This document shows positions 12,397 through 15,795 of a DNA stretch of 25,262 bases, piece by piece (position 1 is the first letter of the stretch; each line of letters opens with the position of its first letter). A program made the position numbers and the translations under genes. The notes under the pieces were generated by a model. It was not told the DNA's origin, ran no database searches, and worked only from the letters and a program-made list of their open reading frames with translations. This stretch comes from an uncultured archaeon (GTDB taxonomy: Archaea; Iainarchaeota; Iainarchaeia; Iainarchaeales; CSSED10-239). Where the stretch lies: the NCBI GenBank assembly GCA_964496765.1, contig CAZCAP010000011.1, positions 1-25,262 on the forward strand, written 5' to 3'.

Positions 12397-15300
12397 TTAT
12401 GCAAGTAAATCTATTCCTAGTCTTTTTACAACCTTATCTTCATCTATTAAAAACTCTGTAATTATACTATTAAAATCACGATAGTCTGCTATATTTGTAT
12501 CACTCAACCATCTCATGTATTTCTTTCTTTTATTGAAATTAACAATATCAATTGTGGATGATAATAGGTTTAAATGATAGGCCCTATCCTTAGTTGAAAG
12601 CTCAACAGTAATAAAATCATTCCTATCTACAATTTCTTCAATTTTAACTATTTGAGTGGTTTCATTAAACCCAAGTTTTAATTTTTTGAGTTCAATTATA
12701 ATTGCTTTTTGACCCATATTTTTCATATTTTCTCTTAGCTGTGGAATCTGACTATAGTTCACATAGCAGAGATTAATTGAATACCAAGGAATATCAAATA
12801 TATCACTTCCAAACTCATCCACAAATATATAATCTGGTCTCTCTGATATTGTGTGTTGGATAATTGTTTTTTTATCAATATCCTCTGATCCAGTAACCAC
12901 TCTTTTTATCCATTGTTTTTGTGGAAGTTTAATTCTATCATAGGACTGAATAGATATTATTTTTTTATCAGGATATAATAAGCCCACTGAATTCAAGAAA
13001 ATAAAAGAAGTATCATCTCCTGTTAATATTACTTTATAATCTTCACTTATTGCACTCCAAATGTATGCAAAAACATCAATAGTTCCAACTCCTGATTTAA
13101 TTAATGTAACTGGGGTTAATGGTGCTTCAAGATATTTCTTAATAACAAATGAAGAGCCCTTGCTACTTAGATCTCCTGCTGAGAATAATCCTTCAACCTT
13201 GTAGCCGTTTGGAAGATAACCTTCAATTATTGGGTGTGCAGAATTAACATACATGCCCATGTTCTTTGTTAGAAGAAGAACAAATTGGTTTAGTTTATTT
13301 ATGTTATCAAAATTTATATTTGTTTCTAGAGTACCATAATCTAGATGATAAACAATCACACTTGTTTTCTCTCCTGCACAGGAAACCTCAAGCACTTTCT
13401 TATCTGACAATAGTGCAGTCAATATTCCTAGTCCTGAAAACTCTCTCTGTATGAACTTATAAAATAATTTCTTATCAAGTGAATTTACCTGGTAGGCTAG
13501 CTTTGATATTGCAATATCAAATATTTTTTTTGTGTATTGCTCAAGAGTATATTTATCTCCACTAAATGTATAATAATTTTGATCAATGGAATTAAAGAAT
13601 ATTTTCTTAATCTCATAGAAGACCTTATTCTGTTCAGGAGTTAGATCAAGTTGCACCATGTTATAGAATAATCCCTTATCTTTGACATAGGAGATTGTAA
13701 CATAGGTGAACTCATCAAGAGCATACTTTTCAAAAACCTTTGTAACATCCAAATCAATTACATTCATTGGTATTGAATAAACCAGAGATTGAATTTTGTC
13801 TTTTTCAAAATTAAAGGCACGAGGGGTTGAGTATACTCCTTCTTGTCCAACAAATCCTGCATTCTTAAAAGAATCAGCTCTTGCATCCTTTGGAAGAATA
13901 TAGGACATTCTTTTATCCTTTGGGCTAGGAGCAACATCTTTATTAAGATAAACCTCACTTTCTGCTTTTGGCTCAATCTTTGGGAGTTGGGTTTGTAAAT
14001 CAACTACCTTTACTTCAGTTGGCCTATTCCTCTCTTGATTCATAAATATATTTAATTTTGCTTTTTCTTCTTCCAACTCTTTTTCAAGAACAGATATTCT
14101 AGGATCTGGTTTTGAAGGCACCTGCTCAGGAGATGCTTCTTTTTTGCTTTCAACAAAAATATTTATATTTTGCTTTTTTGAAGGATCTTGTTTTTTATAA
14201 TCTTTTTCTTTTTTTAATTTATTTTCATTTAATCTTTGTAGATTATCTTCTACCTTTTTATTCAGTTCTGGTCCTGATTTGGTATCCACGAAGGTTGGTA
14301 TATGCATGTCCTCCTGGCGAAGTTCCATTGATTCACTAAACTTATTATTAACTAAGCTATCAATGTCTGCGATATTATCTTTAATGGGAATAATTTCTGG
14401 AATAGTTAATTCTTCAATAATTGCATCTGTGTTTAGTTCCTGTTCTAGTTTCTTTCTTGAGCTTAATATTTGTTTTTTATCTAAGCTTTTTTCTTTTTCT
14501 TCCTGAGTTGCAATTAATTTTGCTTTTGCAAGTTTTGAAAGATCATCAATCTTTGAATAAAGATTTTGAACATTATAGGTTTTATAGGATATCTTACTTA
14601 CCTTAGGGAGTTCACCAGTGAAGCTATACAACTCAAGCATAGCATCATCAGAAATTAATGTTTTGGTTCTTCTATCAAGTTCAGATAATAATTCATTTAT
14701 ATCTTCAACAACAATTATTTTCATTTTTGGTTTTTTATGAATTTGTTTATTAATTTTATCAATATTTTTTTTATCCTCAACAACAACAGTAACATCTTCT
14801 AAATCTGCCTTGGTATATCTTTTATTTAGAGTTTCTTCTATTTCTTTTTGTATGCTTTCCTGGAGATTCCTTTGCTGTCTTTCATGGAATTGTTTTTCTA
14901 ATGTTTCTGGGAGTTTATCCAGAGGAATAGACATTGGAAGTTCATGCAATTCATCAGGTTTGAAATCATAAATTTCTGATGGTAACTCCTGAGGAATAAC
15001 AATTGGAAGCTCCTGGGGAATAACAATTGGAAGTTCCTGAGGGATAACAATTGGTAACTCCTGAGGAATAACTTCTGGAAGTTCCTGAGGGATAACAACT
15101 GGTAGTTCCTGAGGAACAATTACTGGTAGCTCCTGGGGAACAATCATTGGTTCCTCTACACTAGTCAAATCTGGTTCTTCTCTCAATAGTTTAGGTTCTG
15201 GTTTATCTAAAGAAGGAGAAATAATTGGTTTATCTAGTTCATCAAATATATCTTTGGGAACTGCAGTTACTGGAATTATTGGTTTTTCTTCTGGATAATT

Positions 15301-15795
15301 TTTCTTGACCTTTGAGACAATCTTTTCTGATTCTAATTCTTTTGGGATTGGCTTTTCCAGAGGAGGAGAAGCTAATTTATTTTCATCAACATCATCTAAT
15401 TTAATTTTTTTAATCTCAATAACTGGTTCTGGCTCCTTTATTTGCTCACCTTTATGCAAGGATTTAAAATCAAATAATTTAATTCCAGGAGCTTTGACCT
15501 CATTGAAATCAATTTTATCTTCTTTTGAATCATTTACATCATCTTCAGTAACCGTTATTTTCCTTCTAGCGGTTCTACTTTTCAATGGAGTAAAATGAGT
15601 AATATTTTCATGATGTTCATCCTCAGCAACAGAAATAGAAGAAGATATTTTTGAGGTAATTTCACTAGTTAAATCAATCTTTTCAGAAACAGGTTCATTA
15701 TCTGGCACACCTATGGTTGAATTAATCTTTTTTAAAGTGATACCTGTATCACTGTTCTTGTCTCTTTCATTCGTTGACTTTTTATATTTTTTCAT
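12397..15795 (-). CDS. FlaI/PilB/VirB11-family secretion ATPase homolog with a degenerate P-loop and a ~690-aa low-complexity N-terminal extension
   Basis: 1132 aa. Residues ~690-1132 carry ordered family motifs: FSGLGILTALLSDKKVLEVSCAG, HPIIEGYLPNGYKVEG, SKGSSFVIKKY, PLTPVTLI, FAYIWSAI and RPDYIFVDEF. The Walker A position reads ILTGDDTSFIFLNS instead of G..GSGKTT.LNA. The N-terminal part is K/E/P-rich and contains the PQELPxVI repeats. Confidence 0.8.
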   Translation of the reverse strand: MKKYKKSTNERDKNSDTGITLKKINSTIGVPDNEPVSEKIDLTSEITSKISSSISVAEDEHHENITHFTPLKSRTARRKITVTEDDVNDSKEDKIDFNEVKAPGIKLFDFKSLHKGEQIKEPEPVIEIKKIKLDDVDENKLASPPLEKPIPKELESEKIVSKVKKNYPEEKPIIPVTAVPKDIFDELDKPIISPSLDKPEPKLLREEPDLTSVEEPMIVPQELPVIVPQELPVVIPQELPEVIPQELPIVIPQELPIVIPQELPIVIPQELPSEIYDFKPDELHELPMSIPLDKLPETLEKQFHERQQRNLQESIQKEIEETLNKRYTKADLEDVTVVVEDKKNIDKINKQIHKKPKMKIIVVEDINELLSELDRRTKTLISDDAMLELYSFTGELPKVSKISYKTYNVQNLYSKIDDLSKLAKAKLIATQEEKEKSLDKKQILSSRKKLEQELNTDAIIEELTIPEIIPIKDNIADIDSLVNNKFSESMELRQEDMHIPTFVDTKSGPELNKKVEDNLQRLNENKLKKEKDYKKQDPSKKQNINIFVESKKEASPEQVPSKPDPRISVLEKELEEEKAKLNIFMNQERNRPTEVKVVDLQTQLPKIEPKAESEVYLNKDVAPSPKDKRMSYILPKDARADSFKNAGFVGQEGVYSTPRAFNFEKDKIQSLVYSIPMNVIDLDVTKVFEKYALDEFTYVTISYVKDKGLFYNMVQLDLTPEQNKVFYEIKKIFFNSIDQNYYTFSGDKYTLEQYTKKIFDIAISKLAYQVNSLDKKLFYKFIQREFSGLGILTALLSDKKVLEVSCAGEKTSVIVYHLDYGTLETNINFDNINKLNQFVLLLTKNMGMYVNSAHPIIEGYLPNGYKVEGLFSAGDLSSKGSSFVIKKYLEAPLTPVTLIKSGVGTIDVFAYIWSAISEDYKVILTGDDTSFIFLNSVGLLYPDKKIISIQSYDRIKLPQKQWIKRVVTGSEDIDKKTIIQHTISERPDYIFVDEFGSDIFDIPWYSINLCYVNYSQIPQLRENMKNMGQKAIIIELKKLKLGFNETTQIVKIEEIVDRNDFITVELSTKDRAYHLNLLSSTIDIVNFNKRKKYMRWLSDTNIADYRDFNSIITEFLIDEDKVVKRLGIDLLA
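14974..15147 (-). repeat. 24-bp tandem repeat, about 7 units, encoding (I/V)(V/I)PQELPx octapeptides inside the ATPase-homolog gene
   Basis: Plus-strand units include GGTAACTCCTGAGGAATAACAATT, GGAAGCTCCTGGGGAATAACAATT and GGAAGTTCCTGAGGGATAACAATT. The protein reads MIVPQELPVIVPQELPVVIPQELPEVIPQELPIVIPQELPIVIPQELPIVIPQELPSEI (aa ~217-274). Confidence 0.9.

Follow-up and report, generated by a model that had tools for sequence, protein, structure and literature searches.

A conserved FlaI/GspE-type pseudo-ATPase in the pilus-like locus of Iainarchaeia

As far as is known, every type IV filament machine has an active hexameric ATPase at its center. In bacterial type IV pili (T4P), a single filament system is served by several hexameric ATPases that are paralogs of one another, and we know of no paralog of the PilB/PilT/PilU type that is not an active ATPase. 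In the archaellum motor, FlaI is partnered by the non-hydrolysing RecA/KaiC-like ring FlaH/ArlH, a member of the KaiC/RecA family that binds ATP through an intact Walker A motif. Here, a different arrangement is described from a stretch of 25,262 nucleotides of an uncultured archaeon of the Iainarchaeales (assembly GCA_964496765.1, contig CAZCAP010000011.1, positions 1 to 25,262; hereafter the window). Within a pilus-like locus, the position usually held by the motor ATPase is occupied by a gene (12397..15795, minus strand) for a protein of 1132 amino acids (aa). Motif loss, predicted fold, and conserved locus show a FlaI/GspE-type paralog, catalytically dead as judged from its sequence, that has become fixed within a clade of Iainarchaeia (DPANN).

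Two published accounts cover bacterial multi-ATPase T4P (PilB/PilT/PilU) and Tad systems with platforms split into TadB and TadC (PMC6821130, PMC11656802). In a census of archaeal T4P systems from 2016, there is no mention of inactivated ATPases or of Diapherotrites (PMC4858521). No matching description of an inactivated or pseudo-ATPase in archaeal T4P or DPANN pili was found in the searchable literature, most subscription papers being outside its reach. The pseudo-ATPase is real, conserved, and apparently undescribed. A canonical ATPase slot, surrounded by peptidase, platform, and pilin genes, is held by a long-dead and strongly selected enzyme, which points to a non-catalytic function of this fold in pilus biology.

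Fold and catalytic motifs of the core

The gene is an intact open reading frame (ORF) encoding a disordered N-terminal arm followed by a degenerate FlaI/GspE-type two-domain core (aa 676-1132; 12400..13770, minus strand), which comprises an N-terminal domain (NTD), a C-terminal domain (CTD), and PilB3_C-like C-terminal helices. When the last 467 aa were used as a query against PDB with phmmer, the best match was Archaeoglobus fulgidus GspE (PDB ID: 2OAP, E=3.9e-41), and FlaI (PDB ID: 4II7) was matched with E=3.8e-25; the HMMER alignment to 2OAP stops just after Walker B. An AlphaFold2 (AF2) model of the core, built on an alignment of 22 sequences, has a predicted local distance difference test score (pLDDT) of 86.7 and a predicted template modeling score of 0.82. 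The model displays the NTD and RecA-like CTD that characterize the PilB/GspE/FlaI/VirB11 superfamily: Foldseek superposes it on 2OAP across both domains (template modeling score, TM, 0.79; E=6e-32) and on FlaI with TM 0.72, with CpaF, VirB11, and PilT ranking lower. The superposition on GspE and FlaI, suggested in a first-pass annotation made from the sequence alone, thus reveals a retained fold, of which the NTD-CTD linker and interface region is the most conserved part. By pairwise search and fold, the C-terminal ~457 aa are unambiguously a genuine secretion-ATPase homolog.

The same annotation had called this part clearly FlaI/PilB/VirB11-like, which agrees with the pairwise search and the fold but not with the Pfam T2SSE model (PF00437), which gave no match to the protein even at E<=10. 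For this reason, the motifs were placed by PDB phmmer and MAFFT. The sole match in the Pfam scan was a sub-threshold one to PilB3_C at the extreme C-terminus. The NCBIfam FlaI model (NF058587) is matched with E=3e-33, but at 115-121 bits the score lies far under the cutoff of 550, so that the protein falls outside the equivalog-level FlaI family. As it lacks every catalytic motif and remains under the Pfam and NCBIfam thresholds, the protein is filed here as a derivative of the PilB/GspE/FlaI/VirB11 superfamily rather than as a member ATPase.

Motif states were tallied over 46 non-redundant full-length homologs. The former Walker A site, ILTGDDTSFIFLNS (aa 923-936; 12988..13029, minus strand), has an acidic loop, and the HMMER alignment with 2OAP places GETASGKTTTLNA opposite GDDTS--FIFLNS, which identifies the change as a deletion of the P-loop Gly-Lys. 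The deletion (2-3 residues) is found in all 46 copies, the loop being rich in Asp. The 1132 residues contain no GK[ST] and not even one Gly-Lys dipeptide; therefore, no alternative alignment can supply a P-loop, and its presence elsewhere in the protein is ruled out. In the former Asp box, which reads IQSYDR (canonically IEDTxE; 12934..12951, minus strand), Glu is replaced by Gln in 46/46 copies. Just downstream of Walker B, the His box is lost to a five-residue deletion, again in every copy, and the site lacks His. The Walker B remnant RPDYIFVDEF (12811..12840, minus strand) retains Asp-Glu in this copy (VDEF). Across the family, however, its Gly is replaced by Asp (45/46), the subsequent Arg is lost, and the column of the catalytic Glu holds Glu in just 21 of the 46 copies, with Asn, Gln, Thr, or Asp in the others. 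Finally, the Arg of the NTD-CTD linker (..F.IRKF..), which contacts the nucleotide in structures of GspE, PilB, and PilT, is replaced by Lys in 44/46 copies. In total, the family lacks all six elements involved in nucleotide contact or catalysis.

The first-pass annotation had reported a lost Walker A with no GK[ST] in 1132 aa, an Asp box reading IQSYDR, and an unrecognizable His box, all of which hold and extend to the 46 copies. Its retained Walker B is correct for the Glu of this copy but is an overstatement for the family, because that Glu is not conserved. Its conclusion that a canonical nucleotide site is missing is supported by the motif losses across the 46 copies, and the pseudo-ATPase is most probably unable to bind or hydrolyze ATP.

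Could the remodeled site still bind or hydrolyze a nucleotide or some other ligand, making the protein a sensor or a slow motor? In favor of this are an intact fold, predicted with confidence, strong conservation around the former active site, and the Asp-Glu that this copy keeps at Walker B. Nevertheless, such residual activity appears very unlikely given the loss of all six elements, including the Gly-Lys and five-residue His-box deletions in every copy, the acidic loop, and the inconstant Walker B Glu. What occupies the old site is conserved in its own right. Novel invariant residues stand beside the lost motifs (Gln in the Asp box, Asp in Walker B, and a Phe and a Trp nearby), and the replacements recur throughout the family (Asp at the P-loop in 36/46 copies, Asp in Walker B in 45/46, a Lys-Lys pair in 43-44/46, and Gln in the Asp box in 46/46), a pattern more suggestive of a newly imposed constraint on the former active site than of simple loss. 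Possibly, the acidic residues at the former P-loop (Asp-Asp) and Walker B (Asp) pair with the lysines of the former Arg finger (Lys-Lys), mimicking the closed interface that is otherwise bridged by ATP and locking a ring in one state.

Family, selection, and N-terminal arm

A word-indexed search retrieved 15 homologs of 47-57% identity, none of them with a Pfam T2SSE annotation; beyond these, matches fall to canonical ATPases at 23-28% identity. The same gap is seen in a phmmer search over 1.84 billion representatives, with ~18 sequences at >=410 bits and all others at <=165 bits. Scans recovered 18 loci in reference genomes and 26 in JGI metagenomes. The named carriers, among them Ca. Forterrea multitransposorum with its closed genome, are all DPANN archaea of the Iainarchaeia/Diapherotrites type; together they form a limited group of minute, symbiotic-type archaea. 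A deeper relative (P0164), of 31% identity, can be aligned across the entire domain. Its arm measures ~350 aa and bears a matching EEI.VP..I.D island, and its locus (L031) contains an A24 peptidase, the pseudo-ATPase gene, and two genes for T2SSF proteins. In place of the P-loop, P0164 has LLFKKDNRKCDELLNAF, with no deletion, and both Walker B and the His box have degenerated; on these residues, the motif loss is a pattern independent of that in the core family.

Compared with the closest reference-genome ortholog (L004), the ratio of non-synonymous to synonymous substitution rates (dN/dS) amounts to 0.074 in the ATPase-like core and to 0.29 in the arm, both values being approximate since dS is ~1. 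The hallmarks of a pseudoenzyme, i.e., a kept fold, lost catalytic residues, and purifying selection across species, are found together in the 46 copies and P0164. A decaying pseudogene or an assembly or alignment artifact could have been suspected from the blindness of Pfam T2SSE to the protein and from the naming of its orthologs as hypothetical by NCBI. However, the identical 1132-aa protein occurs on at least seven contigs from different samples, 46 full-length copies share one motif state devoid of a Gly-Lys dipeptide, and dN/dS in the core is ~0.07. Decay or artifact is refuted by these observations and has next to no probability; as judged from them, the gene encodes a maintained pseudo-ATPase under strong purifying selection, as the first-pass annotation had proposed in preferring a retained protein to decay. 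As for database names, P0152 is a hypothetical protein at NCBI, while P0147 and P0290 are named 'type IV secretory pathway ATPase VirB11/archaellum biosynthesis ATPase' at JGI. The latter label implies an activity that the residues at the former active site do not support and, because of it, metabolic reconstructions that count pseudo-ATPases as pilus motors would be wrong.

The arm (aa 1-675; 13771..15795, minus strand) is rich in Lys, Glu, Asp, and Pro and predicted to be mostly disordered, with short structured islands; neither a transmembrane segment nor a signal peptide is predicted in it. In the AF2 model its mean pLDDT is 42.8, all of aa 1-291 lie below 50, and pLDDT reaches 60-82 in three islands (~295-326, 366-453, and 502-535); as the underlying alignment is shallow, these scores support disorder but do not prove it. 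Seven tandem 8-aa units, xVIPQELP (24-base-pair (bp) period; 14980..15147, minus strand), differ mostly at synonymous positions, in line with the earlier remark that the peptide repeat is conserved despite synonymous changes. One conserved island (aa ~386-417, ..LELYSFTGELPKVSKISYKTYNVQNLYSKID..; 14545..14640, minus strand) is predicted as a β-hairpin plus helix (pLDDT ~60-69) and contains Glu388, Phe392, Pro397, Leu412, Tyr413, Lys415, and Asp417, which are invariant across orthologs. A second one (aa ~458-474, IIEELTIPEIIPIKDN; 14374..14424, minus strand) is found in P0164 too. Three short islands are kept in all arms compared: SF..[DE].PK..KI....V.NLY[SA]KID, EEI.IP[ED]I..I.D, and YILP.D.

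Arm lengths range from ~320 to 750 aa across the family. Tandem repeats occur at an equivalent position but are lineage-specific and mutually unrelated, e.g., KKEVPLDKVDNSNIS x5 in Forterrea and DLDSKREKAYNQ x3 in L008, while L004 contains longer duplications. The ancestor of the family already had an arm of at least 320 aa, and the expansion alone is lineage-specific. The first-pass annotation had inferred the gain of a disordered-looking arm of ~690 aa; most of the arm is indeed predicted to be disordered, but its length is ~675 aa and the arm as such was not gained in this lineage. The arm per se is not unusual, because long N-terminal extensions are frequent on intact archaeal homologs, as judged by where the matched stretch starts in the phmmer search; its expansion and motif content are what is specific to the pseudo-ATPase. 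In the Forterrea genome paper, a 'secretion-related ATPase' is reported with internal repeats that broke de novo assemblies (PMC5905446), a description that fits the pseudo-ATPase gene. Copies from the Forterrea population measure 1116 aa (L065/L067) and 1101 aa (L066), and 1080 and 1079 aa (P0147 and P0290). The difference between L065/L067 and L066 is exactly 15 aa, i.e., one KKEVPLDKVDNSNIS unit, which suggests a copy-number polymorphism of the arm repeat; the paper ascribed the apparent variation of its 'secretion-related ATPase' to scaffolding errors (PMC5905446).

The pilus-like locus and an intact ferredoxin-fused ATPase

In the window, the pseudo-ATPase gene belongs to a cluster on one strand with gaps of 19-132 bp. 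Upstream lie a 309-aa protein (16650..17579, minus strand) with a DLHTH N-terminus and a weak match to CehA/McbA PHP-type metallohydrolases (26.6 bits against a cutoff of 80), and an archaeal A24 prepilin peptidase similar to FlaK/PibD (15890..16630, minus strand). Downstream follow two polytopic platform proteins: F1 (280 aa; 11523..12365, minus strand), a T2SSF protein that resembles the N-terminal half of FlaJ, and F2 (381 aa; 10349..11494, minus strand), with a weak T2SSF match. A DUF192/COG1430 protein (9894..10247, minus strand), conserved after F2 in the core family, precedes the genes for two pilin-like proteins. The first of these (358 aa; 8690..9766, minus strand) has a class III signal peptide (NKKKA followed by VSSIIVIVLVIL) and two CHB_HEX_C/Fn3_assoc domains; the second (502 aa; 3724..5232, minus strand) has a class III signal peptide (KSKRG followed by ISEVITIILVIL) and two CHB_HEX_C domains. 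The association with T2SSF platform, prepilin peptidase, and pilin genes that is typical of the superfamily is thus found here, and the earlier statement that the rest of the locus is present is borne out. The order 309-aa protein, A24 peptidase, pseudo-ATPase, F1, F2, DUF192, pilins is conserved in ~45 loci, with F1 and F2 after the pseudo-ATPase gene in ~40 of the 45 and the 309-aa protein directly upstream of the peptidase in nearly all loci of the core family. No genes for archaellins, FlaH, or FlaX/FlaCDE were found in the window or in related loci.

The A24 peptidase gene lies directly upstream of the pseudo-ATPase gene in every locus whose upstream side is visible. It is the only universally conserved neighbor, also in the deep relative (L031) and in a subclade (L019/L058/L059, ~8867..11790) that keeps the 309-aa protein, the peptidase, the pseudo-ATPase, and DUF192. 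Such constancy, along with the short linear motifs conserved in the arm, is what one would expect if the main job of the protein lay with the peptidase and the handling of pilins, the pseudo-ATPase acting as a cytoplasmic adaptor or chaperone-like hub and its arm coupling pilin processing to any motor present. We regard this as clearly unlikely: the adjacency may merely reflect inherited operon order, F1 and F2 follow the gene in most loci, and we know of no ATPase-fold protein that acts with A24 peptidases.

The window encodes no intact motor ATPase, and nearly all loci lack one in the surrounding +-10 kb. In one locus (L017), however, the pseudo-ATPase operon continues, with gaps of 10-66 bp across nine genes, into a gene for a 596-aa ATPase that has an N-terminal 4Fe-4S ferredoxin domain (Fer4-ATPase) and intact catalytic motifs (GNTGSGKT, VEEVRE, RPDRVVIGEIR, and TTFH); next come a pair of small T2SSF-like genes and a VTT/DedA gene. 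On contig JAQVTI010000004.1 (57,584 bp), a Fer4-ATPase (P0066) is encoded 18 kb downstream of a pseudo-ATPase copy on the same strand. The genes for L16, UPF0020, NDK, DUF5684, MTase, PCC, and PRPP synthase that lie between the two modules are syntenic in Forterrea and four other genomes. From this synteny, an intact ATPase was predicted ~2 kb further on, and it was confirmed on Forterrea-population contigs of 664, 547, and 229 kb, where a 587-aa Fer4-T2SSE ATPase is encoded on the same strand, 12.2 kb downstream of the 1116-aa pseudo-ATPase and with the same module as in L017. The search for a P-loop-intact paralog, which the first-pass annotation had recommended, is thus positive in relatives, and the implication of that annotation that the pilus system has no motor is not supported.

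The Fer4-ATPases (e.g., L017, 10080..11870; L022, 10001..11749; L065, 13145..14908) are T2SSE/FlaI-like proteins with intact catalytic motifs. About 50 close clusters or homologs occur in DPANN, and the same trio, two small T2SSF-like genes plus a VTT/DedA gene, always comes next. Since their identity to the pseudo-ATPase is 23%, the two are old paralogs of different subfamilies, and the pseudo-ATPase as a recent duplicate of the neighboring intact enzyme is ruled out. Nor do they represent a one-off degraded pseudogene next to an intact copy, the case that was to count against the earlier proposal, as both are conserved. In L017 and the Forterrea-type loci, the Fer4 module contains neither a peptidase nor obvious pilins of its own; the pseudo-ATPase module contains no motor, and in this respect the modules look complementary. 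No description of ferredoxin-fused pilus ATPases was found in the searchable literature, with most subscription papers outside its reach.

The reading toward which we lean, and which seems just on the probable side, is that the pseudo-ATPase serves the pilus base as a scaffold or regulator without catalysis of its own and that energy is supplied in trans by the Fer4-ATPase. The protein would keep its place under the split FlaJ-like platform, forming a structural or regulatory ring that docks on F1 and F2; its disordered arm might recruit partners via the conserved short motifs. The ATP-driven assembly of pilins would be powered by the Fer4-T2SSE ATPase encoded 0-18 kb downstream in relatives, the candidate for the real motor. 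Of the options named in the first-pass annotation, partnership with an active paralog is now the best supported, the intact ATPase being found in three lineages. Because an intact motor gene lies nearby in relatives, this proposal is more modest than that of a motorless pilus.

Several observations weigh against it. Adjacency of the Fer4-ATPase is rare, being seen within +-10 kb in 1 of ~45 loci (L017). The Fer4-ATPase occurs more widely than the pseudo-ATPase (Micrarchaeota, other Diapherotrites) and comes with two platform proteins of its own, so that it can do without the pseudo-ATPase as a partner; any functional coupling of the two modules is putative. In the L019/L058/L059 subclade, the loci have no adjacent F1/F2 or pilin genes and ribosomal protein L16 directly follows; docking on F1 and F2 may therefore not be the essential function. 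In the organism of the window, no intact ATPase is visible: the contigs reach only 1.9 kb past window position 1, all assemblies breaking in the CHB_HEX_C pilin-adhesin repeats, and the 10 kb beyond the other side of the window contain no T2SSE gene. The proposed link of the pseudo-ATPase to F1/F2 or to the Fer4-ATPase is drawn from gene context.

The separate platform pairs also bear on the alternative that the pseudo-ATPase, F1, and F2 constitute an autonomous, nucleotide-free pilus base, a brake or stator whose ring is locked in one state by the acidic-lysine pairing outlined above and which is independent of the Fer4-ATPase. The conservation of the replacement residues would suit a locked ring, and the module comes with a peptidase, pilins, and a platform pair, the platform pair of the Fer4 module being a separate one. 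Against this, we know of no type IV filament (T4P, type II secretion system, or archaellum) that assembles without an ATPase, and an intact one is encoded nearby in three lineages; an autonomous base is conceivable though doubtful. Elements of both proposals can be joined in an undescribed pilus base with two ATPase folds, a speculative and unlikely arrangement, in which the dead ring is locked by salt bridges that replace ATP and the Fer4 motor engages transiently. The ring would then serve as a permanent docking, stator, or brake element on the split FlaJ-like platform, the Fer4-ATPase would sense redox state through its 4Fe-4S domain, and the fast-evolving repeat arm would be a tunable tether. 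If so, pilus deployment, and hence host attachment, would be gated by the redox state of the cell. A redox-sensing pilus motor would merit interest in its own right. Whichever reading holds, DPANN archaea rely on surface appendages for host contact, and the pseudo-ATPase therefore offers a concrete and testable way into the construction and regulation of their attachment apparatus.

The pilin-adhesin genes of the window have features of their own. A 1034-aa ORF (5453..8557, minus strand), with five CHB_HEX_C domains and a Gly-rich domain but no signal peptide, lies in the same frame as the 358-aa pilin, which ends at an in-frame TAA; together they form one frame of 1437 codons (5453..9766, minus strand) broken by this single stop (8690..8692). 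A single in-frame stop is located in the same inter-domain linker of ~12 codons, at different codons, in L038 (~15057) and L048 (~6770); the changes are TCA to TAA in the window, CAA to TAG in L038, and TCA to TAA in L048, and the L039 gene is uninterrupted. ORFs downstream of the stops remain open for 677-1034 codons with dN/dS of ~0.25. The stops could reflect recurrent truncation, perhaps in phase or antigenic variation, or be bypassed by readthrough or re-initiation. Between CHB_HEX_C pilin-adhesin genes lie an AbiEi-like/AbiEii toxin-antitoxin pair and an AAA_14/DUF4143 ATPase (535..3333, plus strand) in a stretch with a GC content of 0.22-0.25, and a further CHB_HEX_C gene is found just past window position 1 on longer contigs. 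GC content is 0.39-0.43 inside the adhesin gene (~5500..8500) versus 0.25-0.30 elsewhere, and contigs from several samples all end in the CHB_HEX_C repeat region, which suggests a variable or repeat-rich cassette area.

Comparison with known systems

In sequence and fold, the pseudo-ATPase is closest to A. fulgidus GspE (2OAP) and the euryarchaeal ATPases of the PilB3 type, with which it shares a weak PilB3_C-type C-terminus; like the euryarchaeal PilB/GspE-like ATPases, it is encoded beside T2SSF platform genes. It differs from the 2OAP/PilB3 type in having none of the catalytic motifs, a disordered arm of 675 aa, and no Pfam T2SSE match. The FlaI system (PDB IDs: 4II7 and 4IHQ) offers the same fold (TM 0.72), a counterpart of F1 in the N-terminal half of FlaJ, and a counterpart of the peptidase in FlaK. 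Unlike FlaI, the pseudo-ATPase is predicted to be catalytically dead and scores under the NCBIfam cutoff, and its locus has no archaellum genes.

The division of the window's platform into two single-T2SSF proteins (F1 and F2) recalls TadB and TadC. The Fer4-T2SSE ATPases of DPANN (P0024-P0072, L017, L022, and L065) belong to the same superfamily and are encoded in the same genomes on the same strand, 0-18 kb off and with two T2SSF-like genes after them; unlike the pseudo-ATPase, they keep intact Walker A, Walker B, Asp-box-like, and His-box motifs and have a 4Fe-4S domain in place of the disordered arm. The nearest functional analogy is FlaH/ArlH, a non-catalytic ring of P-loop fold that is an obligatory structural or regulatory part beside an active ATPase. 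Whereas FlaH stems from the KaiC/RecA family, the pseudo-ATPase is a putatively dead copy of the motor ATPase itself, devoid of a P-loop.

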